DNA of 63,988 nt, counting the filler, from Hausera hauseri (taxonomy: Eukaryota), in NCBI GenBank assembly GCA_046269625.1. It is 11 parts of 11 records of this genome, joined end to end, with 100 filler letters (N's around TTAATTAATTAA, not from the genome) between each part and the next. Parts side by side here need not be neighbours in the genome. Positions count along the whole stretch, not along the records: positions 4,057 to 9,472 come from JBJURY010259400.1; 10 more parts are not named here. One strand, written 5' to 3'. The notes under the pieces were generated by a model. That model was not told the origin of the DNA. It saw only the letters and a program-made list of their open reading frames with translations, and made no database searches. A program made the translations under genes and the position numbers. The stretch's first letter is position 1, and each line of letters opens with the position of its first letter. Below are positions 1,596-62,900 of this stretch, one piece after another.

Positions 1596-3956
1596 TCACT
1601 CCCGCCCCTCGAGGCAAATTTAAAACTATGAAGAGTTAAAGGACAGAGAGGAAAAATCGCAAAACGAAAAGTGTTTGTGTCAGTTGATTTTAGTGTGAAT
1701 AAGACATTGGGTACCTTCTATTGATTTTACCCTGCTATACTTGCTGAATATGACTCTGCGTGTTTTGTCTTTATGCAATGTGTTTGTTTGAAGAGATTGA
1801 GGTTGGGGAAAAATTCCTAGATTTTGGTGTAGGTGTTGTGTCGTGCGAAGATAAGTCGGAATAAATAGAAGAAGAGGGCGAAGAAGGAAAAGGAATTGTT
1901 GAAGAAGGATGGTTAAAAGGTTTGAAAAGAGTGGTAGAAGACGAAGGAGTAATGAAAGGTGTAGTGACGAATAAAGGGAGAGAGGAAAAAATTGGAGTAG
2001 ACATTGGAATTAAGTTGAGTGAAAGACAGGAAAAGGAAAATGAAACGGAGGGAGTGGTGGGAATAGAAGTAGAAAGTTTAGAAAATGATGGGGCAAGACT
2101 AGGAGCAGAACAGGAAGATGGAACAGATGTAGCAATTGGAATAGGAATAGCAAGGAGTAGGGGAGTGAGAAAAGGGGTTGACGTGTCATTTGGTAGGGTG
2201 TCGTCGACAAAGAAAGCGGGCTTTAAGTTGGTAATATGTACTGTAATTTCTTTGCCATCTTTAGAGGTAATAACCCCAAGTACCGAGGTTGGAAACCCCA
2301 AGGTGCCTGATTCTTTAGCCATACGAATTTTTCCGAATACAGATCTTCGGTTAAGTATGTTTTATCTTTGTGAAGTAGCTTGCAAAACGAATCCTTGCTA
2401 ACCTCGACGAAGTGATTTTGCGCCACCCGTATCGTTTCATCTGTATGATAGTCGTTTAGGGCAGTTAGTTTGAATAATGATCTTACAGGAGCTCCGAATA
2501 ATAATTCAGTAGATAAGCATCCTGTAGAAATGGATGGAGTGTTCCGCCAGACAAGCAGAACAAACGGAAGAAGATTAGTCCGACTAGTGTTGTTCTCTGC
2601 GAGGATTCGTAGTGATGTTTTCACTGTTTGGTGGAAAAGTTCTAGAAGGCCATTTGATTGGGGGTGATAAGGCGCTGTAATATATGGTGGATTCCCAATC
2701 GGTTAACAAGGGATTTGAACAGGTCGGATTCAAACTATGGACCCTGGTCCGTGATGATGAAGCGAGGTGATCCAAACCTGCTAATCCATGTGCGAATGGA
2801 AACTTCAGCTATGATGTCGGCGAGGAACGGTCCATCATGGTCAGAATGAACTGATGTCCGTTGTCTGGAGGAAGAGGGCCAACGATGTTGATGTGCGCGG
2901 ATTTGAAACGCGATGTGCAGGGAAAGTGGAATAGTGGTGGCTTTAAATGCTTAGCTGCTTTTTTATTTTTGGCAAGCCATACACTCCTTAACCCATGCCT
3001 GTACATCAGAACGCACTGACGGCCAAATTACTTGTCGATGGAGTAGACAAAACGTGGCTTTAGCACCAGGATGGTGTAGTGAATGCATGCTGTGAAATGC
3101 TTGCCTTTGCAATGATGGTGCTAGGATTGTTACGGAATGGCCTGGTTTAGAAGTGTTTAAAGCCACACCGTCAACGATTGTGCAAGACATAAAAGAATTA
3201 AACATGTCCTGAGATGACTGGTTTTGTTAAAGTTAATCTTGCGTAAAAATCTGTGAAAAACCAATCGAACTAACCGACCTAGATATAAAATTGGCAACCA
3301 AATTGTTAACTCCGTTAATGTGTTTAATATCGAAGTTAAATGTCGATAAGTATGATATTTTTTGTTCTTGGCTTGTGGAAGGGCGTTTTATAGCCATGAT
3401 ATTAATCAAAGGCTTGTCATGGGTCTGTATAGTAAAATGGCGAGCGACAAGTGGGTGAGAAAAATGCTTTAAAGCGAGAACGATGGCGAATAGTTCTCGA
3501 TCGAACGTTAAATATCTGGTTTCAGGAAATGTTAGCTTGCGAGAAAAAAATTCTAGTGGTTGATTTTCTCCCTTGTAGATATGGTGGAGTATAGCGCCTA
3601 CTGCAGTGTTTGACGCGTCTGTAGTAAGGATAAGTTCTGTTTCAGGCTTGGGGAAAGCGAGAATATGAACGGCCTTAATTTCTTCGCGTAGCTTATCAAA
3701 TTTGTCAGCTAATCCAGGTATCCGTTGGATTGGCTTATGTTTTTTGCCGCCGCTTAGGTGTGCGAATGGTGCTGTCAATTCGGAGCAATATGGTGCATAT
3801 TTATTTACAAAGTGTAGTGTACCAAGGAAGCTGCGCATTTCGGTGGTTGTACGTGGCAAGTGGATATTTTTAAGAGCTTCGACTCGGTCTGGTTGGGGTA
3901 AATGACCATCTGGTGAAATAATGTGGCCTAAAAAGTTAATGCGCTTTTTGAAGAAA
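1361..3956 (-). mobile_element. Ty3/Gypsy LTR retrotransposon, family A copy 1 (RT end, RNase H, integrase; degraded, cut by gap)
   Basis: MRSFLGTLHF, LTTDASNTAVGAIL, FDRELFAI, HHPGAKAT...W..C..CQ, HINIVGPLP, PQSNG integrase motifs in ORF fragments 1771-3859. Confidence 0.93.
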
Positions 3957-5255
3957 NNNNNNNNNNNNNNNNNNNNNNNNNNNNNNNNNNNNNNNNNNNN
4001 TTAATTAATTAANNNNNNNNNNNNNNNNNNNNNNNNNNNNNNNNNNNNNNNNNNNNGAAACCTTGTTCCCCCACTGATTTGATTTACCCAAAATTAAAAG
4101 TCTCTCCCAACGCAAATCGGTGAGGTTTGAAGAATATGGTCATGGAAAATGTTTGCTTGATGTAAATTTCGCAACTGTTAAAAATCTAATAAAAACGTTT
4201 ATTGTTAAATTCCATGTACTAAATTTGAATAAATGTTTATGTTGTAAATAGACAGCGATCGACTATCGGTTATTGCAGAGAGACAGTGATAGTTCAGCTG
4301 TCGATTTATATATATTAGTTATAGATTGTACATATTAACTGTTGATTTGCACACATTAAATCGAATTTATCGATAGTATAGATTATTTAAGTACTGATTA
4401 GAAATAACATATGGTGATTATTAACCGAAGAATTGTTAAACAAATGTTGAAAATCGAAAATAATTAGACGGAAAAACAACACATACACTAATCCAAATTG
4501 TATATAAGGCAGAGCTGAAAATGAAAAAGCTGAACAATTTACTTCGACTGTAGCGTCGATTCGATTCCGATTCAGTTTTTATTGAGCGACCAGTTAATTC
4601 CGATTCAACAAATTTTACTGACTGATCGATAAATCGAAACTTGATTTTCTTGGTGATTTGTGTGGTAACTATTATATTGTTATTTTAATTCTCTTTTGTT
4701 CTAAAATCCCGTATAGTTTGCCATCGGCCCTTAAGGCTGATTCGAATAACAATAAGGTTAAAATCTACAATAAATTGTATAGGTACCAGAAATTCTCAAC
4801 TGTGCACAGGATACGGCACGCACTCTACAAGCACGAAATATTTATACATTGAGCACATTCGTTTAACAATAACGTTAAACCGAATTTGCTATTAAGTCAT
4901 TAAATTTAAGAGTAAATACGTTATATATAAGAAGAGTGAGTTGAGGGCCACCCAAATATATAACATTTAACGACCCTAGCAGGACGGTTAATTAACGACA
5001 TATCGGCGATCAGCGCCAAAACATCGATTAATTGTAAGAAAATTAAATTTTGGGATATAAGTTATCAGACTTAAATTAAAGGGATAATTCAAGACGAACG
5101 TTGATAACCAAATAAATGGTAAAAATAAATCTTCTATACGTCAGACACTCAGAGTTATATACAGAACAAATTCTGAAACCAGAATTAATATAGAACCAAA
5201 CGGTAAATTTAAACTTCCTCGACTTAAGGATAAACCTCACAAAAATAAGATAGAT

Positions 5256-6290
5256 ATGGCAGCAGAGAATCCAGCCATAGCACAAAAGCTCGACATTTTT
5301 GCATTTGACTCTTCGAATCTGCCGGCATACGATGGCAATCCGGATGGATTAAACGACTTTTTAAGGACTTACAAATTGCACGCAGAAGGTGCTAGCCTTA
5401 CTCCTGAAGTAACAAAAAAACGCTTATCACTCTATCTTAAGAATTTAGCTGCTGATGCTTATAGTGAGCTTACCAACGACGAAAAAAAATCTTGGTCTTC
5501 CCTGGTAGGAGCCTTAAACCTCATATTATTGCCAACAGTAACGCCGCAACAGAAACTAATGGCATTTCAAAACAGAGTGCAACAGAAGGGTGAATCGGTA
5601 ACCCAGTTTGCTTTTGCATTAAAGAAACTCGCTAATAGTTATGTGAGCACCTTAAGAATAGCTAACGTAGCAAAAGCTAAAACAGATGCAGAGCGTGAGG
5701 CCGCGGAAAAGGCAACGCCACCAGATTTAGACGACATGATGACGACTCAGTTAATAAATGGCATATGGTCAAGAGATTTAGTTAAACAGTTTATTCTGGC
5801 CAGACCTGATAATTTTGAGAGGACATTACAATTAGCCCAACATTTAGAAATGGCATTAGAGAGATATGTCCAGCAAGGTGACAAACATGAAAGGAATAAT
5901 GACCGCAATAACCGTAATAGAAATGATAATCAAGATAACCGACGGTCTAATGATAATAACCGTAATCGAAGTTTCTATAACAGAAATTTCCACAATAGAA
6001 ATTAAAGAAACGACAGAAATTTCAGTTATAAGTGAAACACATACAACTAGTATAATAAACCGAGTTACAATTCAGATAAAAACCAAAGTGGTTACCGATC
6101 TAATAATAAATATACGGATAACAGATATGACGCAGATAATAGACAAATATTTCAGAGCCAGAATAAGAATACAAACAGAGCAAAATCGCCTGTGAATGAA
6201 GATGGCCGACAAAGGATAGGCCGGAATGGGAATTTAATCTGCTTCACATGTGGAAAAGAAGGACATATTGCTAGGTCATATCCAAATCCT
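5256..6290 (+). pseudogene. gag: Retrotransposon Gag with CCHC zinc knuckle (frameshifted)
   Basis: LPAYDGNPDGLNDFL...YLKNLAADAY...FQNRVQQKGESVTQF (Ty3/Gypsy Gag motif), N/R-rich linker, then CFTCGKEGHIARSY. The last Cys is mutated here but intact as CFTCGNEGHIVRSC in copy 2. Confidence 0.88.
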
Positions 6291-9200
6291 ACAAGTGTCA
6301 CATTTACTGAACCCAACAAAACAAGTATGATTAAGAATAACTTAGAAGCCATATATGGTAAACGAGGAGACATAAGCCTGATTATTGAAATGCAAGATTC
6401 ACGCAGATCTGTAAGAAATCTAAGTGAAACTAGTAATCCTCAAGTAATGAACGCTAGAAATGAATATGAAAAGAAATTACGACTAATGGAAGTTTATCAT
6501 GGATTAAGAGAACCACAAACCGAAGAAGAATGGGCTTTGGCACCAAATAATACTAACATGGCGCGTAAAAAGTCTATTCCGCAAGGAATAGCACAATCGG
6601 AGAAACCAACAACATCTAAGAATGTAGATATAGATGCAGAATCCAAAGAGAACTAACCAGACAAAACAACAGATGAAATTGAAAGTGAATTGATTGGGCC
6701 TTTATTTCTTAAAATAACAAAGAACAGAGGCAGAAGCCCTCCCATTAAAAAGAACATAGAAAGAAGAGAAGACATTTATACCGTAGACTCATCCTCAGAT
6801 ATTTCCATTACGCCTATAGGAATTTCAAAAGTGTTAGAAACGCCAGAAATAATAACTGCTAATGATGAAATCAATAAAATTTGCCCATTTCCCGCTAGTG
6901 AGGAAGAAACGGAAGATGATAACGACCTTGATGTAAAAAATGGAAAGTGCGACGTTTATGGAAGAATGCCGATGAACTGAAGAGGATGAGAATTAGATGT
7001 CACGATCCAGAGGTACTTAGACACAATTTGGAAAGGCTCAAGCAGATTAGTAAAGAAACAGATATATCTGGTAAGGAACAACAATTTTCGGAGAAATTAT
7101 ACAAGAGTTTAAAATTGTGGAGTGAAGGGAAACTCGATGAAGCAATTGAAGTAAGACAACCGGAAGAGGTACCATGAGATACGTTGATAAAATGGAACCA
7201 CGAATTAAAGTCGTGGACTAAAAGTGGAGTAGAATTTTCAGAAGGATGGAGTAAAAACGAAGACAGTATTAATGTGAAAGTTACTAAGGCTCAAGCGCTA
7301 CTATCTACCTTAGAAACAAACCCAAAACTGAAGAGAGTAGTCCGTAATTTAGAACGTATGATGGATAAAATTCTCTGTGCAATGATTAATCGGCTTGGGG
7401 AAAAACCGGTTAGCGATCGAAGTAGTATCGATTTAGAGATATTGGGTGTAGACCTGATAGATATTCCTCCTTTAATGGAAATGATAAAAATTGCCTTTGT
7501 CGAAAACCGACGATGTGCGGACTTAGAGAGCCGCATCAAAATGGAAAATGAAAAAAGGTCACAGATCAACAGTTTGAGAAATCGAATTATTTGTATAAAT
7601 AATGAAGAAACCAAATATATAATAAAAGCTTGTATCATAGAATTCGACGAATATAAGGATGAGCTCAATTATGTTAGTCAATTCATAAACTTCATAAAAG
7701 ACCCAGGCGACGAATTGAAAGGTGCCTACAAGATATTATACAAAATGATATTAGCCAAGCCAATAATCGCCAATCAATTGTCAAAATGGTCCGAATTAAT
7801 AACGAGATTAAGTAAATTAGTAGAAGAACGTAAGAAAAAATTTCCGGAAAGCGAACTATCGGTAAAAAGGCAACTGGAAGAAGGTCCACGTAACTTAACC
7901 ACCATATAAGCAGAAATAGACATCCGGGCACGGTTTGAAGCATTACGACTATTAAATTTTATGAAGAAGAAGCAAGAAAAGACAACCTTAGAAGAAATAT
8001 ATAAAATGATTGAAGAGACAAACTTCACGGAAAAGCGGAATATGACTTTCAATCTGTACTCAAGGTTAAGAAGTCTTCGACGAGAAGGAATCCAACACTT
8101 AACAGACAGACCTATCGACGAGATTTCAATTCAGGGCACCGAAACCTTGGATATTTGTCCGGGAGATAGAGCAGCCCTAATAGAAGCTGTGAGATTCCTG
8201 CACAAACCACAAGAATGTATAGCTGGTACGGATCAGAACTGTCACACCGATTTGACGAAAAGAAGAAACAACCAACGTCTTAGATTTGAAGATTCTGATT
8301 TCGTAAAGAAATTGCTGGATGCAATGGACCCCGATTCAAAAATTATAAATGAGATATATGGGTAGAAGTGGCGGAGATTAATGATGAAAGAATGAGTTAA
8401 TTAATGCCCAAAATACAACAGGTTGAAGAAACATTTATCAGAACAAAACAAAGAGCAACGGGGCTAGATAAATCTAACGAAAGAGTTTGAAGACTACCGG
8501 AACAAATACATTCTTACGGAATCAGAAGTTAAAAATAAGCTAGAATTTGTGCAGAGATGGCAAAGAGATGTAATTATTGAACTAAACGACTATTACCAAA
8601 AGGTATTTATCAATGCTAACGAGTAAGGCGAATTACTGAAAAGGATTCAATATGCTCGCGGAAATGGAATCGGTTTCCGGACCACGCAGATAAAAGAAGT
8701 ACAACCAAATTTAAGAGAAATTCGAGAAAATGTGCAAAGGACGAATACAGCTCTAGTAGATTATGGACTTCCAGATATTGGGAATGAACCAGAATAGGAT
8801 ACTTATTTAGAAGAAATAACGGCCGAAAATCTGGTAAGCCCAGTACACCTGGATGAGATACAAATGTATCCGCAGAATAGGAAATTTAATGTAAAAATAA
8901 TCCTAGACTCAGCATTAACCGAGAAGGACTTGATGGAATCACTTAACGTGAACATGACAGAAAATAAGTTCATATAACTTATTCCAACTTTGACTAAATT
9001 ATCTAGTGAGAATACAGTTTACAGCACGATGCCGAAACTTTTGATTAAAAAATATACAGACATCTTGAAGACTAAACCCGAAGTAGGGATGAAAATAATG
9101 ATATCATCCGAGTGGATGAAAGAAAAAGAGTGCGAGTTAACTACTCATTCCTACGTGAAGGATGTAAGAGAATGATTACTAAACAACGATGGGACGAATG

Positions 9201-9472
9201 AGCTAAATTACAGTTTTTATTTTAGAGGAAGAATACTCGATGACTTAGAACAATTAATAGATGTCGAAATTATTTCCGACAAAACCAATCGGATAGTAGT
9301 AATAATAGCCAATGAACAGACAAAGGAGGAAGCCACGCTTAAAGCTAAAACAGAACAGTGCGTAGGACAATTCATTGGAGTACGTGACACTGCAATGTAT
9401 TTCAAGTATTTACAGACGGATGAAGACAAGGAACAATACGACAAGAATCTAGTACCGCTAAGTGGAATGCCA
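6291..9472 (+). pseudogene. Long charged/helical polyprotein region containing a ubiquitin-like domain at 9089-9310
   Basis: Fragments 6690-8365 and 8990-9472 match copy 2 in order. MKIMISSEW...FYFRGRILDDLEQLIDVEI aligns without gaps to ubiquitin residues 1-61. Confidence 0.7.
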
Positions 9473-18649: not shown

Positions 18650-18915
18650 ATGAAAATGTCTTAACCAGATATCTTGGCATCATTCAAGGATGTTTTTGCT
18701 GTAGAATATTTTAGTACTGGGAAAGTGTGTACAATTGAAGAACATACAAAAGAGAAGAGTGGAGGCAAAGTTTGTGTATATCATGTAAAGTAAATAAGGT
18801 AGATACGGTATTGCTAATGTGCGGCCATCTGGTTGTATGCCAGATATGCTCAAAGTTAAGTCATTGTCCGGAGTGTAAATGCGCTGTAACTGAAAGTGTG
18901 CATATTTACTATTAA
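18650..18915 (+). pseudogene. Small C3HC4 RING-finger (IAP/Mdm2-type) gene, probably Polinton accessory
   Basis: CV(frameshift)SCKVNKVDTVLLMCGHLVVCQICSKLSHCPECKCAVTESVHIYY* at 18773-18915. It converges on the pPolB stop and is absent from the ORF track. Confidence 0.75.
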
Positions 18916-19740
18916 TAAAGACATACGAAAACTTTTATTGTTATAACAAAATATTTACAATCAAATAGAATAATGTCCATATGCGACACTTTTATTTTTC
19001 TGGATCCACTGCATTTATCATCAAACGGATCCAATGCTTTCTTTTTGATCCGATTGACATAACCTGATGACTTTTGGTCCCAATTTGCTACTGTTCTAAT
19101 CTCGTCTTTAAATTTTCCTATTGTGGCTGTAAAACAAGTCGAGTACAGCGGATCACTCTTGTCATAGTTTGCCGTATCTAACTGTTTGCTTTTTATCATT
19201 GCCGGTAATATTTTTGTTCGTAAGTTAACACCACGACATTCAAGGAAAAAGTCGTCTGTGTCACCAGCAACAATATTTACCTCGCCAATAAACTGGTGCC
19301 TATACGTTTCCAAGTCGATGTAATTCAGCTCATAAATTCTTAACTTGGACAAAGTAAGTACGGCCTCACCAATGTATGAGGTCTTATCTAAGGTGACTAT
19401 ATCTTTATCGAGGAGATATGCAACCAGATCATCGGCTATAATAATGCTCTCTTTAGACTTTGCCTTGCTTGTGTAAGTAACAAGCGTTTTAGCATTATTA
19501 TATAATCTTAAAATTGACCTTTCCAGCAGATTTTCAACTGTTTTGCAGTGTAAGCTGTTGTTCTTAAGTTTAGAAAAGTCTTTCTCAAAAGAATTATTTA
19601 CCGCAGTCCTCTTTACAGTGTTTAGATCGATATAATCCTTAAAGACATAACTCTAGTCAAACTCAACAGCCCGATGTACCTTTTCAACTGTAGCCCCTAA
19701 CTCGATGTCCAACTGTATTAGCCGACTTACGCTCATGTGT
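18912..19740 (-). pseudogene. Polinton/adintovirus protein-primed DNA polymerase B, C-terminal fragment
   Basis: EKVHRAVEF, FEKDFSKLKNNSLHCKTVEN (degenerate motif B), VAGDTDDFF (motif C), IGKFKDE, ALDPFDDK. Confidence 0.85.
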
Positions 19741-24573: not shown

Positions 24574-24941
24574 TCGTCACTTTTCGACCGAATTTTGCTT
24601 CTAAGTTGCATACATAATAACTTTGTTCATTCCCATCTTTCTGTCTCCAACCTAATTCGATTCCAGAAGTCTTGTAGTTCCATTCCTCCGATTATTTCTG
24701 GTAATATTTCTGTCACTACTATGGAAGTTACGCGCTTCTGTACACCCTTGAGTTCCACATTTACGGATAGTTCATCCATGCAGTCTAGGGGGCTACCATT
24801 TGCACGACGGAGCGTGATATCTGATTTCTCCAGCTGAACATNNNNNNNNNNNNNNNNNNNNNNNNNNNNNNNNNNNNNNNNNNNNTTAATTAATTAANNN
24901 NNNNNNNNNNNNNNNNNNNNNNNNNNNNNNNNNNNNNNNNN

Positions 24942-27096
24942 TATTTTGTATTTTTTGAAGTCTCTTCGCAAATTTTATTCCTGGGTAATAATTGTATCGG
25001 ACGAATGCCTTTTCTGCCGTTTCTAAATCTAATTTTTTCAATGCGTGTTCAGCTAACTTTTTCCACATTTTGTTATGTTGACTAAGTTGTAATTGTTGAA
25101 GATTGTCATGTGAAAGAGAAATAGGAATAACGTCGGAATCAGAATCAGACGAATCGGATGAATTACTAGAATCAGAAGAGTTACTAGAAGAATAAAACTG
25201 TTCCGATTCCAACTCTGTTAATGGTTTGTGCGGTGGAATATTCGAACTTTGTTTCCTGATTCTAATTGACTCAATTTTCAAACTGTAACGATCAAATTGC
25301 TGTTGGAAAAATGTGGTAATGTCATTTGGATTTGACAATAAAGTATCGATTTCGCGAAAATTTCCCGGATTATTAGCATAATCGAGATGCAATTGTGAAT
25401 TTAAATGGTCGTATAAATTGGAATATGTGACACTGCAACATTCGCAAAATGCCAATGATTTACGATTTCTTCTCATTGAACCGTCTTCTGATTTCGAGTC
25501 GGTGTCATCGTTATCAACTACATGGATCTCTGATTTTGACTCGACAACAGATTTGTCAGTTTGATCCGTATTGTTAACAACATTGTAAAGAATTTGAAGT
25601 GACTCTTTAGACCACCGAATCAAAGGGAACCGTTGCTTCATTGCTTCAAAAAAGACGTATTCCGTTAAGGTTTCTAACGACAATGCAAAATCGGCAATTG
25701 CTAATATCTGACGTTCACTGATCGTATCATAAATATCAGCGGAATTCATTATCGTGGAATGAACAATTTCAATTATCGTATTCAATTTAACTGACTTTAC
25801 GCTTGTCGAAACCGTTTTGGAATGCTTCAAAATATCTTGCAGACTTTCAGAAGTGTCTGGTGATTTTAAAAGAATCAATGAGTTCCACTTGTTTTTCGCA
25901 AGATCTTTGTTTGAACTGTACCCGAAAGAGTCTATAGAAAACTTTGGGGCGACATCAACTGGTGATAATAAGGTTTCTTGACTAACAGTAAATGTCATAG
26001 TTTCAGAAGTTAAAATCAAAGGCCTAAAATGCATATCCGTTTTTGGTTTGGACAATTTAACGCGTTTTGAATTTGACTGTCTGTCCCAAGTTCTGGAAAC
26101 ATACGGCTGAAATGCACTTTTTCTGAAATCATCGTTGTTAATTTTTATACTTTGAAGTAAATCGTTATTAGAAACAACATATCTGAGTTCTTTAAGAAAA
26201 GATGGATTCTGCTGAAAAAACTCATGAACATCTAGTGGAAGTTTTGTTTCTGTTTTCCTCAGTTTTCCCTTCATATCCCTTATTGAAATATCGTATAAAT
26301 ACTGTTGTTTTAAACTTGAAGCTGAATCTAAGCGTATGTACCACCAATGACTCCATCGTTGAAATAGACTGATGATTACGTTCCGGCACTTAACTCCATG
26401 GAATGCGTGTTGGCTCTTACAAAAGTACAAAACGTCATTAATGATCAAATCAGTGGAATTTTGCATTCGATAAATCATCATAAGAATATGATTTGATATT
26501 TTCACTCTATTATCGTTCTGAATAACATCGATCATAATTTTACCAACTGCATTTATATATTTAATGTCATAATATTTCATGATAAGGCTATCTTTCGAGC
26601 AATACTTACAAATATAAGAAGGGAAATGTAAAATAATTTTGCCGTTTGGTTTAAAAAATATATTGTGGATTGTAATGCACAAACATTTGCTCAGATTTGT
26701 TTCATTAAGAAGGGTGTTTGAAATTTTTCTAAATAGTATGTATAAAAATATAAGACATTCTTGATCGGAGTAAAAAATGGGATCATAACAGTAATTCCAT
26801 AATTGACTGAGACTGAAATAACCGATCTGTAAATAAAGCATGTCAGTGCAATTTTTAGTGATCTGTAAATTTCAAACGTTTTCCTCTGATCCGGTTCCAG
26901 ACTTTTCATTGGATAGAGAACCTAGAGAAAGTCTGCTTGCCGTTACACTTCTATCAGTTTCAGATTCTACGTCAGTTATTAAACTGTTTTCTGTTGAAAG
27001 AAAAGATTCTTGCAATTCCGAATACAATTCTTCATTATCGATCGGAAGAATTGACACTTTAATTCGTTTATTCCCATATTCCAATGGAGCGTCCAT
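24942..27096 (-). CDS. DBF4-type zinc-finger protein with N-terminal KIND-like domain and C-terminal WDR35/IFT121-like segment; two exons, 3' end lost in gap
   Basis: Exon 1 is 27096-26878 (MDAPLEY..., 73 codons). A phase-0 GT-AG intron at 26877-26827 carries CACTGAC. Exon 2 is open to the gap and contains FCECCSVTYSNLYDHLNSQLHLDYANNPGNFREIDTLL (zf-DBF). Confidence 0.72.
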
Positions 27097-29049: not shown

Positions 29050-30378
29050 CCTTTCCCACAATATTTTCCAAATAAAACAGAAAGAATGATCCTTTCTCAT
29101 AAGGCACCCTCGAGAACGCATCGTCGGGATCAAGACCGACAAGATGCGGATTCAATTTGCAGAACTCGTGACCCGGTCCGTGAATATCATTGAATGCATC
29201 CAACTAATCCAATGGAAAATAATTCGACAGGCCATAGATCTACTCACCGATTCCTGCAATTCAGCCAGACCACCTTTAATATGGAAATGTCGATAATCCG
29301 TTGAGTTAACATGGGCCTCCAGAATCAACCTCTCAACGTAATTCGTATGACCCTCGTTGACCCAGAAATGATCCCAATTGCTGTTCGTCACCAAATTTCC
29401 CGTCCATGAATGTGCCATTTCGTGGGCAAGAACGTGAACCTGAGACCGATCGCCACTGATTAGACATGGCGTGACAAACGTCAGACACGGATTTTCCATA
29501 CCACCGTACGGGAATGATGGTGGCAACACTAAAACATCGTAAACACCCCATTCGTACGGTCCACAAATCGACTCGGCAATGCTCAAAATGCTTTCCATTT
29601 CGGCAAATTCCCACGCAGCTGCTTCGACCATTTCTGGCTCACTCCAAACTGTACAACGCGGGCCAACATTGATTCCTTTCAAATTACCACAGACAATGGC
29701 GATCAGATATGATGGAACGGGGATCTTCTGTAAAAATGAGTAAGCCATGTGATCTTTGCAGTCATTTTCTTCTAATTTAACGGCACTCATTAGAACTTTA
29801 ACGTTTTTTGGTGCTTCTACTCGAGCTGTAAACGGAGCCTTTACCGATGGTGTGTCTTGACATGGAAGGAGACTTCTTGCATGAACGGCCTGACATTGAC
29901 TGAATAAATACGGCTCCTTTCCACCTAAGGTCATCGATGGTTTTAACCACTGCAGAGCAGTACAACCACTGGTTGTCGAATAGACGATTTTCACCAAGAA
30001 TCTGAACAACCACCATAAAACAACCACCAGAATTAAATAAAATTACTTTTCCTTTTTTAACATTATCGGAATTTCAATGCAACTCCAAATGTCGCCGGTT
30101 TTGCTCACGAATGGAACTTTGTTTCCATCGACAGTTACTTCTTCAATATTCAATTTATTAGCGTCCAAAATCTAAATAAATTATTAAAAAGGCATAAAAT
30201 TAATATCTGTTAAATTTACCAGAACATCGGCTTTAGAATTCAGAGTTCGAATTTCATGCTCGACAAATCCGCTTAATGTTTCGGAAGCGAAATCAACTTT
30301 CCAATTAAAATGAGACTTCTCGGTAACAAAGTCTTCAGCGTTTGCATATGACGTTGGATCGTTCTTAGATAACTCCAT
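29050..30378 (-). CDS. LTA4H: Leukotriene A4 hydrolase-like M1 aminopeptidase, 4 exons, C-terminal domain not found
   Basis: Exons 30378-30220, 30171-30047, 30001-29248, 29203-29050 with GT-AG introns of 48, 45 and 44 nt. Motifs: [42 protein letters not shown]...WVNEG, VPYEKG. Confidence 0.9.
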
Positions 30379-30880: not shown

Positions 30881-31935
30881 TCGTAATTCAGTTTGCATTC
30901 ATTCAATATTATTTCTCTATATAAGTTTCTTATTTCTTGTCGAACGTAGTTAATCAAGTAATCTATTTTGTTATCGAAATATTGCGTTAATTTGATATCT
31001 TTTCTATCTATTTTAATTTTTGCTTAGGATACCTCTCTCGATGAGAGATATAGTCCTTTGTAATTGGTCTTAAACATTTCTTCATTACATTTATTGGTCG
31101 CCCCATAATTTTAAAACGCATCGTCTCTTCAGGGTTCTGTGAATACACTACCGTTGCTACTTCCGTCATTTTTACTTCTTTGACCCCTTCTCTATAGGTT
31201 GTTGTTTCTTTCTCGGCCGTTTTTCCTATTGTCTTATTAAATTTCCCTTCCTTTAATAGTGTCAAATGGCATCTATTTGAAGATGTTTCCCATGTCATTT
31301 TTGATTCTCCGGTATCACATTCACCGCTCTCATATTCGCATTCGCTCATTATTGTCATGAGTCTTGTTTGTGAATTGAATAATTCTTCGTATTCTTTTAA
31401 CTGGACCTGGTAGTCCTCGATTGCACCGTTCTTGGAGCATTCGTTCCTCCGACATCGTAATCTACCCATTTACAAGTACCTTCCATTGTTTTATCTATTC
31501 TTCCTGCTCGAAAAATTCTGGTATATTTTATCTTTCCTCGTACAGCTGGGATTTGAGCATTCTGTATAGTTATGATCCCGATTTTAAAAGCGTCTTGGCA
31601 TTCAGCTCGTGATATTATTATTGGCTCAAAAGGGGTCGTCGGTTCAATAATGGCCGAATTTCCTGAATAATATGCACAATTAAATAAAAAGAATGACTTC
31701 TTCACGTAGCACTCTCTTATCTTGACTTTTATAAATTCTGACTCCTGATACACCTAATATCAAGGACCACTGGTTGTTGTCAATTGTTTTGGGTCCGCTT
31801 CGGGGCATTTTTCTAAATCTATTAGCGAATACTTTTGTCCCTCTTTTGGTTTCGAACAATCATAAGCCACCATTCCCATCGCTTTAGGCATGCATAATGA
31901 TGCTTTCAGTAATATTTGTAGTATTTCCATAAATG
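30881..31935 (-). pseudogene. env: Chuvirus-type (class III, gB-like) envelope glycoprotein N-terminal ectodomain
   Basis: Hydrophobic signal, then VAYDC...YSLIDLEKCP...VYQESEF..VKIRECYVK..F.FNC...ISRAECQ...GTCK...CEYESGEC...W....C.L.L..G. I recognise this Cys spacing from chuvirus glycoproteins and their retrotransposon-captured homologs. Confidence 0.72.
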
Positions 31936-32219
31936 ACATTCCACCCAGACCTTGTTTATTACTGGTTGGTTGGGTTGTGGTTGGTCTTTCCGGTGTTTCC
32001 CTTTCTAATCTTAACCTACCGTTCATCAGACTAGGTATCCATCCACCTCTGCATTGTACCCAACTTCCTAAAGTATCACGCAGGATCTTAACGGTTACTT
32101 TTATATTACGCTCTATTTCCTCCAAATTCTGTTTGGTAATTAATCACTATTACTTTATATATTAAATAGGCCACCGCCGTAACTGCCTTTTACCGAGTAA
32201 TCCCTGTAGCGAACATCTT

Positions 32220-33035
32220 CTATAATATGTCCTGTTCGTGGAGTTCGTTAATTCGTTCTTCATTAATATTTTCGTAAAATTGTCTACTAATTCTCAACAT
32301 GTTATTCCTTAATGTCTGAAACAATTCATGTGGAATAGTTACCTGCATATCGAATGACGCAAATGACGTATGAAGTTTTGCTAATAACGTTCTCAATAGT
32401 GGATCTATATCCACTGATTCCGGTGCCGTTTCTGTTCCTGCTAATAGTAATCGTCGTACAATTTCCTCATTCCTATCCTTTCTATTTCGAATGTCACTTA
32501 TCTTTGTTCCTTTTGGCCTTCCTTTACTCCGTGCTTCTGTTTGTACCGTAACATCCTGAGTATCAGCTAACAACTGTTCTTTCCCTCCTTGGGGTTCCTG
32601 GGGTTCTACTTCTCTTATTATGTTAGCTATTGTTTCTTCCGCCTTCAAATCGGGGCGTATTTCGGTTATAGTGATGATATTGTAATTTTCACTTCGGCAC
32701 CCAATCCTTAATAATTGATCATAACCGTATAATGTTCGGCCAAAGAAACTTAACCCATAAACCTTTTCTTAATAAAATGGCTCTAATTCTTCAATCTTTT
32801 CCCTTAATGTCAAAACATCATCCATTTCATTCATTCTAATGATCCTTATGTCCTGATTTCTTTCCTTTAATGTTATTCTTACTGTCTCGTTCCGTTTCTT
32901 CTTACCTTCGGCTGTCTTGGCTAATATAGTTCTTGCTATTTCTCGTATTGGGCTACTATCATGGGCTAATAGCAACAATTGAAATAGAATCTCATTAATC
33001 TTAACTACTGTTACCTTATTATCTATTAATTTCAA
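32220..33035 (-). pseudogene. Accessory region with ubiquitin-like domain (one in-frame TAA at 32769-32771)
   Basis: ORFs 32769-33035 and 32220-32648 are in the same frame: VRITLKE...DDVLTLREKIEELE...YGLSFFGRTLYGYDQLLRIGCRSENYNIITIT. Confidence 0.65.
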
Positions 33036-33326
33036 TATTGCAGTTGTAGCTTAATTAACGTCTCTTATATTCTCAGAGTTTATAGCAACTACTGCCTAAA
33101 TAATATCATCTTCGGCATCCAAATCTATCTCTATATCCTGCATTACCTGTTCAATGACAGTTTCATCAAATATTTTTGTTGATGGGTTTTCTTCCTCTGG
33201 TGTTAACTCACTAGTGTTGACTTTCTTTCGTCCCCTTTTTCTTTCTATATCACTTTTTTCTATCGACGTTTCCCTTGATTCTGCTTTTATTATTTTCTTA
33301 TTACCCTTCTTTCTCCCTTGTCTAGT

Positions 33327-34400
33327 TTATCCTTCTTTCGGCTTCTCCTCTAATACATAAATACTATTTTCTCTTAGTCTTTTCTGTTGGATTTTGTAAT
33401 CTTTTAACTCCATTGCTAACTGAGTCCTCATGCGTTGCAACAGTACGTTATCAACGTAATTTACCTTTTCTTTCTTTTTATCTTTCTTATTATCTTCGTG
33501 TTCACTTTCCTCATCTTTATCGGAAGACTCCTCTGATGTAGCTGATGTGTAATTCTGTTTCTTCTCTCTCTTTTCATCTTTCGTCCTTGTAGATTCTTTC
33601 TTGCGTGATCTACAAGTTTTTGCTATATGGCCATATTTGTTACAATTAAAACATTTTAACCTACTCTCTGAATCTATACTTGGCAACGAACGGCCGTCTT
33701 TGGTGCAATGCTTCTTTGACTTATCCCCGTCTTTTTTTAACTTGAATCTTACCTTCTTTTCTACATCGGATTAAGCCTCTGTAGCTGACGTTTGCGAGAA
33801 GCTTCGATTTTTATTGTATCTCTGGTACCTTTGTGTACTATTGTTTCTTCGTTTGTAATTGTTTGTATTATCTTTTGACTTTGTCCATTTATACAATTCG
33901 GCGTCCCGTTCAGCTTTTCGAGCCTTCCTAATTGCCTCTTGAAAAGTGGAGGGGTCGGCATGCAATATAATACTTCTTAACTTTCCTTCCAACCCATATT
34001 AAAACTGAGCCAACAACGCATTATTTCGTATTACTGCATCATGATAAGCCCTCGCGGCTAACTTTGGCAGTGCAAATACGACGTCCTGAACTGTCTCGCC
34101 TTTTCGTTGCCTCCTTCGTATAAACCCCTCTATCCTTCCTTTTCCTGAAGGATCAACTAGGAACTTTTGAGGTAACTTATCTTTGACAGTCTTCCAGTCC
34201 ATATTATCTTCTTCTGGCATCTGGCAATAGATTGTTAATGCAGTTCTTTTCAGATGAAGAGGTAACCTCTCCATTCGTTGTTGGTCATTCCATCCGAAAC
34301 TCTTGGAATATACCTCATATTTCATGAGGAAATCTTGTACGTCTTTTTGTCCTAAAAACTTCTTCATGGGCAGGGTGAAGTCAGCTTTTGACTGTATCAC
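33327..34400 (-). pseudogene. gag: Retrotransposon Gag plus CCHC zinc knuckle
   Basis: KFLGQKDVQDFLMKYE...LPLHLKRTAL...RRQRKGETVQD...FQEAIRKARKAE...CFNCNKYGHIAKTC. Confidence 0.88.
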
Positions 34401-34582
34401 CTGTTCTACATTATGTTCATTTCGGGCAATTCAGTATTCCTTTTCTGTACTTAAATTGGCTATAAACTCTAACCAAAATAGTAAATTATTGTCCGAATCT
34501 ACTTTACACGGTGTCCCTTTTCTAGTCGTAATCTTAACGGTTTATTCGGCTACTATCCAAAGGTTTCTTGATTCGTTTTAGA

Positions 34583-34600
34583 TCCCCGGTCACGGCACCA
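34583..34600 (-). promoter_or_regulatory. Primer-binding site, tRNA-His type
   Basis: TGGTGCCGTGAC.. lies two bases after an LTR-terminal CA and is complementary to the conserved tRNA-His 3' end (..GUCACGGCACCA). Confidence 0.8.
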
Positions 34601-34602
34601 GT

Positions 34603-35072
34603 TGTTCAATCTTTACTAATTTCACCTGGGACAGGCTTCGAATACTTAATTTGTGAATTAATGGGTGAACAAGGTTCGGAAGAGATACCCAGATATCCTA
34701 TTCCTACCTAGCCTTAACTTATGTCTGTATGTAGGGGTCGAATAGGCTGTGGGCCTATGAAGATCAATTTATTTACTAAGGTTGTAATTGGCTCTTTTTC
34801 AATTGAAAATTAAACGGGCTGCCGTCAGGTAGGGTGGACCTGGACAGCTGTTTTCCAAATTTACTTAAACTTATACACTTACTTAATTACTTAGAAATGA
34901 TAACGAATATGAATACAATAAATATAATGTATTAAAAGAATATAGTAAAATGCAATTCTCATAAACTTACAGCAATAAGCAGAAATTAGCACAATAATAA
35001 AAATTTGTTCGAACTGTTTCACACAACACTAGTATTTATACTTGGTTGTTCGTCTCATTTTTCATATAATAT
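34603..35072 (-). repeat. 5' LTR of family C (partial)
   Basis: Ends ...GAACA immediately before the PBS. TATAAATA is present on the minus strand near 35040. The outer end is lost in the gap. Confidence 0.6.
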
Positions 35073-35571
35073 NNNNNNNNNNNNNNNNNNNNNNNNNNNN
35101 NNNNNNNNNNNNNNNNTTAATTAATTAANNNNNNNNNNNNNNNNNNNNNNNNNNNNNNNNNNNNNNNNNNNNCATCTCGGACCGTTTACACGGTCGAAGA
35201 AGATGATGCTAGTGCATTGCCCAATGTACCCACGGTACTGTACAAGTACGATGCACGACGTTGATGATTGTCTTAGTACAATGGAGCAATACTATGGTGC
35301 CACAACGGTTCACGGTAAAGGGGCCCACGTTTGTTTCTGTTGTTCAATAGTTGATGATGAAATCAACTATGAACAATCTTACAATGAGCACCAGGGCCAC
35401 TTAAACCAGTTTCAGCGGTGGTCGAAAAAACAAATATTAATGAACTCAACAAAAATCATCATCAGCATCAGCATCCCTTCAATAACAACAACAATAACCA
35501 GTAGGAAACGTAAGACATAAAGAAGTCTGGACAAATACATCAGAACCAGTACCGAGCTGCAAGAAGAAGAA

Positions 35572-38500
35572 GTGCAACAGCAGGATCAGCAGAAGCAGCA
35601 ACAGCAAGAGGAACAGATACAACAGGAACCCGACATTAATGTCAAATACGATCTAAACAGATATTACGTGGACATAAAAGCCACCATGTCGGTGGCAAAA
35701 ACAACAACGCAATTGAGACATGTTCCGCAAAATGTGCGCAACCAGTTGGAATCTGAAGTGGAGAAATTCCAACACCACCACTACCAACACCACAGCAAAG
35801 TGCAATTGAAGGTGACAGGAAACAATGGTACCTGTCACATCGAGCTGTACCTTATGTCAATAATTTTTTTGTCGACATCGGCGAAGAGCTCTATGAGAAA
35901 ATCGCCAGCTACACGGAAAAGTGTAGTGGATGACGAATTCTACGAATTGTCACCTTAGGCTTATCATAACAAAGTCAAGTGACATAATATATTTGTCCGG
36001 ACGATCATGCATACTGACACTTGCAGCTCTAAAGCAGTTTCTGGCGGTAGTGAATCTAAAAAATACTAACGATGAATATTGTTTTGTTTACCGTATTTTG
36101 GCGGTATTGAAATATGACGAAGTGGAGAGACATAATGCATCTCGTCCAAAACGATATCGGAAATATTTTTCCGAATTGGATTTCGATGAATGCTGGATGC
36201 CGATGAAACTGAAATTCATTCCGGCTTTTGAACGGCGTAATCCGACACTGGCAATCAATGTGTACCGGTACAACACAACTGTAGAAATACCGGCGGATAA
36301 ATAAATTTATAAAAATCCACACGTGGATATAATCTATCGAAATCGGAACCTAAATGGCCGCTCGGTAAATTTGTTGCTACTGGAACAAAAAGAAAAGTAC
36401 CATTACGTTGCAGTGACAAATCTGGACAGAGTACTAAATATGGAGCATGACCATTTCCTCCAAAAACGGAAACAGTATAAACGGTGTCTTGTATATCTTC
36501 ATGGATTGAGGTCGGAAACAACATAGGAGAAACATGTGACTCTGTGCAGACAAAATTTTTCAGGAACCACAATGTATGTCATGCCCGTCAAACAAGAACT
36601 CAGGTTAACTGACTGGTCAAAAACAGACAGTCCGGCATATGTAGTATATGCCGATATCGAAGCTACCTTACCACAGCACAACATATATGACCAAAAACAT
36701 GTTCCAATCGCCATCGGTATGTTGGTTGTCCCAATAAAAGCTCCAGGCCGTCAACCTCAGTATTGTGTTTTCCACGGATGGAATTGTGTACGCGATTTCT
36801 TGCAGCAGTTGCAAACCACAGTGGAAACTGAAATCGCACCCTGGTACAGTAGAAATAGCAAAAAACCCTTGATGTGGACAGATGAGGATAAACGCCTGAC
36901 GTTTACAATCACAGATGAATGTTACCTGTGTCACAGAATATTACCGTTTGATGCACAGAAATTGTTCATACCAGATCACGATCATTTTATCGGTCTATAT
37001 CTCGGAGCAGCATGTAATTCATGCAATGTGGCAAGGCGTGTGCGGCCATTCCTGTCGGTGGTATTTCATAACTTCAGGGGTTATGATTATCACCATATTT
37101 TGAAATTAGCAATAAACGGATTTCCGCACTGGGAACTATCCATAATTCCGACTACGATGGAGAAATACCTGTCACTGTCTGCTCATATAAACCGGTTCCA
37201 TGTACGCTTTCTTGATTCATTGCAATTTCTCAATGAATCATTGACAAAGCGGGTAAATGCCTTGCCAGATGTGCCGATAGCACTGACGTAGTTCCCCGCA
37301 CATATTGCACGCAGTAAAGGCATATTTTCACATGACTTTGCAGCATCGTATGAGCAACTGCGGACAGCAGATGATTTACCTCCGCGATGGACAGGTATCG
37401 CAGAAGATGAATACCGGAAAACATAGAGGAGTTGGACAGAACTCAGCTGTAGAAACATGTTGGATTACATGCTTCAGTACCTTAAACTGGACGTGTACTT
37501 ATGAGCTGATGTATTCCAGGAATTTCGGGCGAAAGCGTTGGCTGAATGTAGGCTGGAGCCACTTAACTTTTATTCCATACCGGGAATGAGTTAGGCGTCA
37601 GCTTTAATTTCACTGGATCGAGACATTAAGCTGCTGCAAGAACCGGAAATGTACCGGCTGTTTTATGTTGGTATTCGCGGCGGCGTGACATTTGTCAACA
37701 AGCATCAGGTCCGTGTTACCGATACCACATCACTGTTGTATATTTATATTAATAACCTGTATGGCTGGGCGCTTTCGCAACCCTTACCGTACGGTTCATT
37801 CAAATGGGTTGTCGACAGACAAGATCTGGACGACATAATGGTCAACCTACCACGAGCAGACATGGCAGGCATAGTCGGATACCTGATGGAGGTCGATGGC
37901 GTTGTACTAGATGAGCTGCACGACGTTTTTGACGATTTACCGGTCGCACCATTTAACCAATGTCCGCCAGGCTCAAAAGTGAAAAAACTGCTAATGACAC
38001 ATGAACCAAAGCTGAATTACCTGGTCTGTTGGCGTCTCCTACAGTTCTACATGCAGCTTGGTGTACGTGTCACACAGCTGCATCGTGCAATCACGTTCAT
38101 GAGTAAGGCGCAGTTTCGGCGGTCAATGCACATTGCCGATGGATTAGTTGCGGTGCTGTTAAACCGGGAAGAAGTCGTTCTGGACCGACCAAGTTACATG
38201 GGACAAGTGTTATTGGACCTGAACAAGTTGCAGATGTATGAGCTACAATATCCCGATTTGGCACGTTACCGGCAAATGTTTGACGGCTGTGACATAAGTA
38301 TAATTGCCGGTGACACAGACAGTTTTTTCCAGGAAGTTTTTTGTCAATCGCAAACAGCTACTGCAGCAAATGCAGTCAGATGGATTACTGGAACACGTCT
38401 AACTATCCACTGTATCATCTGTTGCACAGCAGCGCGATCACCAACAAAATCGGCTGCTTCAAGGATGAAAGTGAAAGTCGTGTCCAGTATCGGTAATAGA

Positions 38501-38787
38501 TATTCCTACGCTCAAATTGCTACAGTCTTCTGACGGACTGTGGATCGAAACTGCGGGCAAAAGGAGTCCAGCTGAGACAGACGGAAATCGACCACGGTGA
38601 TTATCGCCGTATCTATAAAGAAGGAGGAGAATCAAAGGCTGTTGTATTACAAACGATCATCCGATCGATTGAGCACCAGCTGTATACGGTGACCAACACA
38701 AAAGTCGCTTTATCACGCAATGATGATAAGCGTAAGTGGGTGGGGCGAAATTAGAGTTGGGCGTACGGACATTGGCGTTTGGAATAA
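35572..38787 (+). pseudogene. Polinton/adintovirus protein-primed DNA polymerase B, near full length, frameshifted
   Basis: NLKNTNDEYCF, YADIEA (ExoI), endonuclease VII-like C..C...DHDH..G.YLGAACNSCN, FHNFRGYD (ExoII), RFLDSLQF, YLKLDV, NNLYGWALSQPLP (motif A), AGDTDSF (motif C), DDKR...AYGHW. Confidence 0.92.
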
Positions 38788-45330: not shown

Positions 45331-45640
45331 AGTTGTTGGCGGCGGACGTATCCACGCCGTCCACATCGTCGCCCAGCTTGGGTAGGGTTGGAAAATTCCC
45401 ACCCCTGGTATGTCCGCTAAATCAGAATTTGATCGTTTGTAATTTCTCATTGCAAAGTAACACCAGTTGTTGAAAATTTTTATTGTCTCTCAAAATACTC
45501 ATTTGGAAACAAATTTTCCGACAATTCCAAAATTAAATTAAACTTTTAATATTACATTTTTAATTTAAATTTATAGTCGAATTTTAAAATTTAAAAATGC
45601 TTTTAAATTAATTTTACAATTTCCGTTCTCGATTATATCC

Positions 45641-46371: not shown

Positions 46372-46399
46372 TTGCCTGTTTTAAATCAGTCAAAAATCG

Positions 46400-46745
46400 T
46401 ACGACGACGACGTTTGTTTATAGCTGAAAAGCTAGCTGATATACCATGTTTTCTCGAGCCATTACGACAGAATTGTTTTTTGACTGATTAAACGACTCTC
46501 GGTGCAGAGCTCTTTATTTCCGACAAGGCGTGTTCCTTCACAGATGGTAAAATCGATTTCTTTTTATATAGTAGCATTCTGTGTTGTTTTGCTGCGACGG
46601 CTTGAATACGCTTCAACACTGGAAATGCTAAATGTGCCAATGTACGCAACCATTCAGAGCCATACTGTTTACCAACGAAATACAGCAGTTCACCACCTTG
46701 CTGAGGTTTACTGTAAACGGAAACGATTTCAGAATCAATCATGTT
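46400..46745 (-). pseudogene. Polinton small basic core-like protein
   Basis: QQGGELLYFVGKQYGSEWLRTLAHLAFPVLK, located between the minor and major capsid genes. Confidence 0.55.
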
Positions 46746-46749
46746 GATG

Positions 46750-56960: not shown

Positions 56961-56999
56961 CATTATGAGTTTCACTATGCGAATTCCAATTATTCGTAT

Positions 57000-59993: not shown

Positions 59994-62900
59994 CTTATCG
60001 CAGTCGTAAACAGTGACAGCACCTATGTGCTTTATTAGCATCATTAAGGTAAGTAAGCTGATTAACCAATTGGGTTCATTTTTCCGGTGGGTATTATCCG
60101 TCGTCGTTAAGTTATGTAACATATCTTGGAGCCTATTGCTATTTCCTGATTGTTTGTCTTCTTCCTTATCTAATAATCTCGACCAATTAATTTCTCAGGG
60201 TAATTTTCTTGCCACTCTTTGTGCTAAGCTTGTAGCTCTATTAATTTCATTTTTCTGATTAGGGTTTATTTTGATAGCTAAGTACAATAATACCTTAATT
60301 CTTCAATAGTATTTTCCACCATGATATTTTCGATTACCGATTCATCGGTTAAGTTATTTTTTGATAATTTAAAACGTGAACTTCTCATCATCCTATCTGC
60401 ATTGAATATGGCTTTTTCTTTATTATCTAATATATCGCTTGCGAGGCTTGAATAATTCACAATACGTATTAAATTATTTATTAATTCGTTTAATTCTTCG
60501 TCGTCTGTACTGAAAATAGGAATCGACATCTGCCTCAGTTCTCTAATCAATTCTCCATTATAGTCAGTTTCTTCTTGTGTCTTCGTAGGTCTACCTACTG
60601 GGTCTTTCTGTTTTGGGGCATTGGTTATTGTTTCACTTAGTGGCACTAAATTCTTATCATATTGTTTCCTATCTTCACCGGTTTGTAAGTACTCGAAATA
60701 CATTGCAGCATCTCGGACTCCCATGATTTGTCCTACGCATTGTTCTGCCTTTGCCTTACGCGTAGCTTCTTCTTTAGTCTGTTCATCAGCTATTATTATT
60801 ATTATTCGATTTCTTTCGTCGGGGATAATCCCAACGTCTATTAACTGTTCAAAATCGTCTAGTATTCTACCTCTAAAATAGAATCTGTAGTTTAACTCGT
60901 TTGTTTCACCATTATATATTAACCATTTTCTTACGTCCCTTACATATGAATAAGTAGTTAATTCACATTCTTTTTCATCCATCCACTCGGATGATACCAT
61001 TACCTTTATCGTTACTTCAGTTTACCCCTCAAGATTTTAGCTTATTTCCTTATCAAAAGTTTCGTCAACGCGCTGTAAATTGTGTTCGCACTAGATAATT
61101 TAGTCAATGTCGGAATAAGTTGTCTTAAATTACTTTTAGTAATGTTTACGTTAATTAGTTCAATTAAATCCTTTTCAGTTAGCTCTGAATATAGGAGCAT
61201 CTCCACATTGAATCTCCTATTTTGCGGATACGTTTCTATTCCATTTAGCTGTACCGGAGTCACAGGATTCTCGGTTGTTAATGCATCTAAGTACGCATAC
61301 CATTCCGGTTCATTTTCAAAATCTGGAAGTCCATAGTCTACAAGTGCTGTATTCGCCCTTTGTACATTCTCTCGAATTTCTTTCAACCTTGGCTGTATTA
61401 CGTTCATCTCTGTTGTCCAGAATCCTAATCCGTTTTCACAAGCATACTGAATCATTTTCAGTAATTCACCTCATTCATCAGAACTGATGGATCTCTTTTG
61501 GTGATAATTAGCTAGTTCAAGAATTACATCTCTTTGCCATCTTTGTACAAATTCGCGCTTATTTTTGATTTCAGATTTGATAAAAACATATTTGTTCCGG
61601 TAGATTTCCAGCTCTCTTACTAATTCGTCTAACCTCCGTGCTCTTTGTTTGATTCTAATGCACATTTCTTCGACTTCTCGTAGCTTGGGTATCAATTGCC
61701 TCATATTCTCATCATTAATCTTTTTCATTTCTACTAATAGGAAAGCTAACTCATACATTTCATTTATGACTTTTGAGTCGGGATCTATTGCATCGATCAA
61801 TTTCTTTACGAACATATATTCTTCAAAACTAAGATGTTGGTCATTTCTTACTTTGTCAACTCGGTATGGCAATTCTGATCTGTTCCTATCATCCATTTCC
61901 TGTTGTTTGTGCAAGAATCTTATTGCTTACTCTAAAGCTGCTCTATGTTCCGGATAGATATCTCAGGTTTCGATATCTTGGACTGAAATTCCGTTGATAA
62001 ATTTATCTGTTAGATGCTGAACTCCTTCTAGTCGGGCGTTTCTTAATCTTGGGTAAAAGTCGCATGTCGTATTTTGCTTTTCTGTAAAATTTGTTTCTTC
62101 GATCATTTTATAAATCTCTTTCAGTATCGTCGTTTCTTTCTGCTTATTCATAAAATTTAATCCTCGTAATGCTTCAAATTGCGTCGGAATGTCTATTTCG
62201 GCTTGTATTGTATCTAAGTTCCGTGCATTTTTTAATTGCTTTTTAACAGATGGTTTGCTTTCTAGAAATTCTTTCCTACGGTCTTCTACTAATTTACTTA
62301 GTCTCATTATTAATTTGGACCATTCCGACAATTGATTGGCGATTATTGGCTTTGACAATATAGTCTTGTCTAGTATCTTATATGCATCCGGTAGTTCGTC
62401 ATCTGGACCCTTTATGAAATTCATAATCTGGCCGACATAATCGAACTCATCCTTATATTTGTCATATTCTATGATACAAGCTTTTATTACGTATTTGGTT
62501 TCTTCATTATTTAGAAACATAATTTGGTTTCTCAAACTACAGATTGGTGTTCGTTTTTCATTTTCCATTTTGATACGATTCTCCAGGTTCGTATATTGTT
62601 TGGGTGCAGCGAAAGCGATTTTTATCGTTTCCATTAAAGGAGGAATGTCTACTTGGTCTATGCCCAATATTTCTAAATCGATAGCACTTTGAATTGCTAA
62701 CCGGTTTTTCTCTAAGCCGGTTAATCATTGCACAGCAAATTTCATACATCATACGTTCTAAATTTCGGACTACTCTTTTTAGTTTTGGGTTTGCTTCTAC
62801 GGTGGACATTAGGGTCTGAACTTTAGTGACCTTTACATCAACAATATCTTTATTCTTGCTACATCCTTCCGAAAATTCGACTCTATTTTTAATCCATGAT

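Follow-up and report, generated by a model that had tools for sequence, protein, structure and literature searches.

A ubiquitin-like domain (UBL) encoded within a retroelement has already been described in planarians. In the giant gypsy-like elements Burro/GYPSM1, ORF1 comprises Gag, CCHC knuckles and Smc-like as well as other cargo, a Ubi2/SUMO-like domain sits next to BCL-2 with MATH on its other side, and Env, which is related to mononegavirus fusion proteins, lies in frame between gag and pol, as outlined in the review by Arkhipova and Yushenova (2019; PMC6431247). Interference with host apoptosis and ubiquitination was put forward as a suggestion for Burro in the same review. GAG-ENV-POL errantiviruses with an HSV/gB-type Env are reported from Nematoda, Bryozoa and Platyhelminthes (Chary and Hayashi, 2026; PMC13524379); the word “ubiquitin” was not found in the main text of this paper. 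An engineered case comes from work on budding, in which ubiquitin fused to Gag replaces the late domain and, without its Gly-Gly, drives ESCRT-dependent release, for which Leu8 and Ile44 are required (Zhadina and Bieniasz, 2010; PMC2958808). The sequence-only reading of the DNA analyzed here had referred to this substitution of a late domain, and the report by Zhadina and Bieniasz bears it out. Troyka elements were considered as a further comparison and rejected as not relevant, since they have no envelope (PMC12440569). A literature search outside most subscription papers and Repbase revealed, beyond the Burro review, no other paper on the domain and no function test.

For the present analysis, a stretch of 63,988 nucleotides from Hausera hauseri (GCA_046269625.1) was used, referred to as the window. 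It consists of 11 short contigs joined by 10 N-linkers (N-runs around a six-frame stop cassette). Two copies of one retroelement family (family B) and a distant further element (element C) carry a candidate UBL, as does the database protein P0008. Element C and P0008 appear to share with Burro/GYPSM1 the order Gag-CCHC-UBL-Bcl-2-Env, their Bcl-2 matches being weak, a likeness drawn from the published description, and family B matches this order up to the UBL and the likely start of Env (PMC6431247). Family B copy 1, element C and P0008 each contain one CCHC knuckle, in contrast to two or three in Burro/GYPSM1, and the pieces of the present elements that were scanned gave no MATH, BIR or ankyrin match. 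The present UBLs fit PF00240/RAD23-type domains best, whereas the review names PF11976 (PMC6431247). Family B differs further from Burro by a stretch of about 950 codons between knuckle and UBL in which no family was matched, and by the lack of a Bcl-2 match. The present elements are thus classed as Burro-like and not as Burro, as they have a single knuckle and gave no MATH, BIR or ankyrin match, and as pol, LTRs and total size lie outside the visible contigs.

In element C and P0008 a gB-type Env follows directly after Gag, with no pol or protease motif between them, which is also the arrangement of the GAG-ENV-POL errantiviruses, and the Env of element C shares motifs, as judged by eye, with two Schmidtea ENV rows in the supplement of that study (PMC13524379). 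The errantivirus grouping, however, rests on pol phylogeny, and the present contigs (B copy 1, B copy 2 and C) all end in or before Env. Like the engineered Gag-ubiquitin, the elements join Gag in one chain with a likely ubiquitin fold that lacks Gly-Gly; the engineered fusions use true ubiquitin at the end of Gag (PMC2958808), whereas the present UBL is only about 18% identical to it and lacks Leu8 and Ile44. Type and place of the UBL were already published for the planarian Burro elements, so that the present case chiefly extends their known range: one genome contributes two divergent families, and P0008 is an intact relative of compact size. New here are the loss of the binding patch and a spacing to Env that stays fixed in three divergent sequences.

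RAD23A, ubiquilin and the ISG15 lobes are integral (type II) ubiquitin-like domains. The present segments resemble them in the sequence pattern of the fold core, in their best PDB matches and in the absence of a cleavable Gly-Gly end. Unlike RAD23A-type UBLs, they are internal in a retroelement polyprotein, have lost the patch of the Leu8/Ile44 type and score below the family cut-offs.

Organization and decay of the family B elements

The contig of family B copy 1 (4057-9472) ends 54 codons past the candidate UBL. Its Gag (5088..6653, plus strand) contains a Ty3-type capsid-like region, an Asn/Arg-rich stretch and the CCHC knuckle near 6240-6290, which matches zf-CCHC (PF00098) with an E value of 2.5e-4. 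Family B Gag alone gave no Pfam capsid match; it is homologous to the Gag of element C (blastp, E 2e-17), and the Gag of P0008 finds that of copy 1 (tblastn, E 1.9e-16). Gag is followed by an orphan region of about 700 codons (6950..9088, plus strand), helical-looking by eye, which is interrupted by stops and, near 8361-8474, by a frameshifted stretch, and has its counterpart in copy 2 at 61021-63160 (minus strand). No Pfam family was detected in this region, and its copy 2 part had no usable match in the Atlas. In a frame-aware comparison of the two copies it shows a dN/dS of 0.23 over 692 codons, indicating purifying selection.

The candidate UBL of copy 1 is located at 9089..9310 (plus strand) and is interrupted by one in-frame stop (9173-9175). 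The second copy lies on a contig (59994-63988) which is 76% identical to copy 1 over 2624 columns, and its UBL (60790..61009, minus strand) is part of an open frame of 247 residues and is open where copy 1 has the stop, as had been noted from the sequence. The region after the UBL (60173..60789, minus strand), at the place where the relatives carry a Bcl-2-like domain, gave no Bcl-2 match. At the end of the contig (59994..60065, minus strand) a hydrophobic, signal-peptide-like stretch (hydropathy 1.94 over 19 residues) is followed by a YDC motif and cut off. Stretch and motif look like the beginning of the relatives' fusion protein, with an E value of only 0.14 against element C. Judging from these roughly 20 visible residues, family B likely continues into Env. 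Homolog searches with copy 2 yielded no accepted candidate (0 of 2067 and 0 of 388), and none of the 13 viral-contig and 591 metagenome-contig stretches from the locus searches was confirmed.

The segment had been assigned to a family B polyprotein. This holds in so far as the UBL continues the reading frame of the long region behind Gag, but the frame is broken in copy 1 by eight stops within 6200-9467 and by frameshifts. Since both copies carry stops and frameshifts, they are pseudogenes, and copy 1 most likely makes nothing. One stop occupies the same codon in both copies (8624..8626, plus strand, in copy 1; 61471-61473 in copy 2), with different stop codons. It is the only shared stop in the frame-aware comparison and is located 150 codons before the UBL. 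It may be a programmed readthrough site or a coincidence, with a probability of chance between 0.05 and 0.48 depending on the model. An alternative genetic code was rejected, because all three stop codons occur, most of the stops are not shared between the copies, and frameshifts accompany them. Neither a tRNA gene nor an LTR pair was found, and no terminal repeat pair was seen inside the contigs of 4.0-5.4 kb. CpG is not depleted across the window (observed/expected 0.89-1.17).

Between the two copies, the UBL shows a dN of 0.13 and a dS of 1.17 (dN/dS 0.11, frame-aware). Amino acid identity amounts to 54 of 73 positions (74%) in the UBL versus 463 of 692 (67%) upstream (Fisher p 0.24); of 630 overlapping windows from the upstream region, only 3% reach the conservation of the UBL. 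The 52 codons downstream of it are as conserved (79% identity, dN/dS 0.08). The segment is kept under purifying selection; the expectation that it is better conserved than its flanks is only weakly borne out, as dN/dS is lower than upstream (0.11 vs 0.23), amino acid identity is not significantly higher and the downstream flank is equally conserved.

Relatives inside and outside the window

Element C (30881-35072, minus strand) is a distant Gag-CCHC-UBL-Bcl-2-like-Env element. Its Gag (33609..34430, minus strand) consists of a capsid-like region (Ty3_capsid, E 0.0017) and the knuckle (zf-CCHC, E 3.2e-4). The UBL (32655..32891, minus strand; PF00240, E 0.026) contains one in-frame stop, and the Bcl-2-like domain (31970..32300, minus strand) is split by a frameshift, its last piece matching PF00452 with E 0.018. 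The envelope (30881..31876, minus strand) is a Monjiviricetes-type fusion protein (PF24664, E 1.9e-13), broken and cut by the contig end; it is also found by P0008 in tblastn. When this Env piece was used as query for homologs, none of 79 candidates passed.

A profile search against 1.84 billion representatives returned a single protein, P0008. It comprises 1130 residues in an unbroken frame, originates from one contig of 4786 bases and ends inside Env. This one frame encodes zf-CCHC, ubiquitin (473-522, E 0.031), Bcl-2 (651-748, E 0.055; covering positions 6-100 of PF00452) and the fusion protein (E 6e-19), and the Gag part resembles the dArc2 capsid (E 0.0068). P0008 is 32% identical to element C over 776 columns, and none of 5000 shuffles matched its residues 463-540 as well as the UBL of element C. 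It belongs with element C and not with family B, its link to the latter being weak outside Gag. In both element C and P0008 the UBL is followed by what we take to be an AT-hook-like motif.

Evidence for a probable ubiquitin fold

The ungapped alignment of the copy 1 segment to ubiquitin, from which the domain had been recognized, is correct: all 13 named identities hold against ubiquitin in PDB 8q7r_U, and 12 of them against a giant-virus ubiquitin variant which differs at position 16. Overall identity is about 18% over positions 1-76 (14 identities). Against ubiquitin, 3 of 3000 shuffles scored as high as copy 1 and 72 of 3000 as high as copy 2. Among 2124 six-frame tiles of the window, a ubiquitin profile placed copy 1 at rank 3 (E 0.3), and two off-frame regions equal or outscore it. 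Taken alone, the ubiquitin alignment does not exceed what chance yields in this window, and PDB searches with single sequences returned nothing ubiquitin-like.

The domain is nevertheless likely to be real because of the relatives found later, and not because of the first alignment. PF00240 is matched, each time weakly, by all four segments (both B copies, element C and P0008), with a best E value of 0.0038; the B copies reach E 0.11-0.12 at about 12.6 bits, and every segment (12.6-14.7 bits) stays below the curated cut-off of 25.4 bits. As a control, 60 tiles were scanned, namely 57 of 90 listed ones and three added following the coding frame. While 20 of these match some unrelated family at E ≤ 0.15, none matches any ubiquitin-like family. 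A profile built only from the segments of element C and P0008 finds the B copies among the 2124 window tiles with E values of 3.9e-4 and 5e-3, compared to 0.97 for the best unrelated tile. In the opposite direction, a profile of the B copies ranks the UBL of P0008 first of 42 tiles (E 0.006); against element C it is not significant (E 0.21-0.3), and blastp between the polyproteins of family B and element C gave no hit. Pairwise comparison, too, links family B only modestly to the C-type segments (P0001 versus P0008, E 0.015; 24 and 70 of 5000 shuffles).

With a profile of all four rows, 22 PDB matches were obtained, of which 18, including the entire top 11, have a ubiquitin fold. The best match is the UBL of RAD23A (E 0.024), over positions 4-76 of 80 (73/80). 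Positions 3, 5, 17, 23, 26, 30, 43, 45, 50 and 56 of the core are hydrophobic in all four segments, and G47 is kept. In the MAFFT alignment, the B rows are displaced relative to the Pfam register in their first half. In the Atlas, the features of the copy 2 UBL place it among ubiquitin-like clusters (0.92; a score of 0.9 is reached by 4-10 in 100 shuffled proteins, and protein parts are uncalibrated), and its best family-bearing matches share a family or clan in 10 of 10 cases. AlphaFold models were unusable, with a pLDDT of 41.7 for copy 2 alone and 39.8 for the four-row alignment. The latter model has the order strand-strand-helix-strand, as in a beta-grasp, and is too poor to search; Foldseek gave no match at E ≤ 0.001 and VIA-align a best Z of 3.1, which is uninformative on the fold.

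The position within the polyprotein is a further shared feature. From the UBL to the YDC motif we counted 290 codons in B copy 2, 294 in element C and 305 in P0008, whereas the distance from knuckle to UBL is 2846 nt in family B and 771 nt in element C. The UBL thus keeps its spacing to Env, while the cargo in front of it ranges between about 260 and 950 codons. Taken from sequence comparison, the segment is very probably a true ubiquitin-like fold, a fold that structure prediction left unconfirmed.

A ubiquitin-like domain that lacks Gly-Gly can serve neither for conjugation nor as a cleavage signal of the ubiquitin type. No Gly-Gly is present at the end of the UBL in P0008 or in either B copy, in agreement with what had been noted for family B, and in element C the nearest one is located about 25 residues further on. 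Because the UBL lacks Gly-Gly, it would act neither as a modifier nor as such a signal, and a role as cleavage signal was rejected on the same grounds. The earlier view of an integral, non-conjugatable UBL is supported by the four segments, as far as their sequences indicate.

Possible role of the ubiquitin-like domain

Our preferred reading, to which we assign a probability of roughly 0.55, is that the segment is a real built-in UBL of a decayed, Burro-like Gag-Env retroelement, which in the ancestral elements docked host proteins in the cytosol via a surface other than the Leu8/Ile44 patch. In active ancestors the UBL would have been a cytosolic docking module for host proteins, and docking may have occurred on another side of the domain, perhaps near the Arg at position 48. 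At an overall identity of 18-25%, all four rows retain this Arg, at the position of Lys48, and also an Asn ahead of the last strand. The signal sequence of Env would leave the part consisting of Gag, UBL and Bcl-2 on the cytosolic side of the membrane. A host-facing role is suggested because the neighbours of the domain in Burro elements are modules of apoptosis and of the ubiquitin system; these neighbouring domains come from one review.

Resemblance by chance, with the family B segment adopting some other small alpha/beta fold, is very unlikely. It would agree with the chance-level likeness of the single sequences in the window, with the absence of any match above the curated cut-off and with the two unusable models. 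The reciprocal profile links with the C-type segments, the PF00240 matches in 4 of 4 segments versus 0 of 60 controls, the same position before the YDC motif and the Atlas result all speak against it. The sequence-only reading had proposed a ubiquitin mimic for budding or for recruitment of the proteasome or DUBs. The equivalents of Leu8 and Ile44 are E/Y in both B copies, R/S in element C and Y/H in P0008, so that both residues are lost in all four segments, which weakens the proposal and makes an ESCRT mimic unlikely. More generally, a mimic that acts through the usual patch and recruits ESCRT for budding, or proteasome receptors or DUBs, appears quite unlikely, as the residues it needs are neither kept nor alike across the four segments, even though ubiquitin without Gly-Gly on Gag drives ESCRT-dependent release (PMC2958808) and the UBL of RAD23A is the best PDB match. 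In favour of a mimic, P0008 lacks PTAP, PPxY and YPxL motifs, so that some substitute may be needed.

Loss of the host-binding patch would fit a UBL that binds the element's own proteins, as an assembly adaptor contacting the basic nucleocapsid region. The three segments of the window are net acidic (D+E 13-14 versus K+R 9-11), and a precedent exists in the Ubl1 of coronavirus Nsp3, which binds N in competition with RNA (PMC9938351). The acidity is slight, however, and the knuckle lies between 771 and 2846 nt from the UBL although the distance to Env hardly changes; we regard such an adaptor as doubtful. The fixed distance to Env would also suit a small stable domain without a binding partner, either an aid to the folding of the long polyprotein or a rigid spacer before the membrane anchor; the core is conserved whereas the surface is largely variable, and the flanks are conserved to no lesser degree. 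The invariant Arg and Asn hint instead at a kept surface, and a mere spacer is unlikely.

The intact P0008 provides a natural unbroken domain usable for structural and binding work, and the lost patch narrows the options. A further reading, which we consider improbable, is that UBL and Bcl-2-like domain form an ancient cassette, a fixed Gag-Env module that stays about 300 residues before the Env signal whatever cargo precedes it, and which would replace short late-domain motifs by binding host machinery for membrane scission or extraction via a new surface distinct from Ile44. If true, endogenous retroviruses of invertebrates would naturally encode a ubiquitin-fold pathway of their own for releasing particles. 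The module would gain weight if it proved to drive particle release.

Other elements in the window

Several further genes and elements were identified in the window. A broken ubiquitin E1 gene, UBA1-like, is located at 54480-57000 (minus strand) and matches ThiF (E 5e-55), FCCH and SCCH. It has no obvious introns, is flanked by two gypsy pol copies on one contig and looks like host cDNA cargo; the pieces on either side of it are presumably RFC1-like. The family A gypsy pol (reverse transcriptase, RNase H and integrase) occurs at 48422-50106 and 58209-59893 on one contig, with 90% identity, and a third copy at 2287-3956 shows 69%. An ORF of 661 residues with a DBF zinc finger (24886-26871, minus strand), which presumably ends in a WDR35-like peptide, and an uninterrupted piece of an M1 aminopeptidase (29152-30042, minus strand) are possibly more captured host cDNA. 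DNA polymerase B fragments were detected as well (PF03175, E 1.4e-4 at 36527-37288), and the pieces at 35500-38533 (plus strand), 18912-19652 and 45600-47247 (both minus strand), including capsid-like ones, are taken by us to be Polinton-like.
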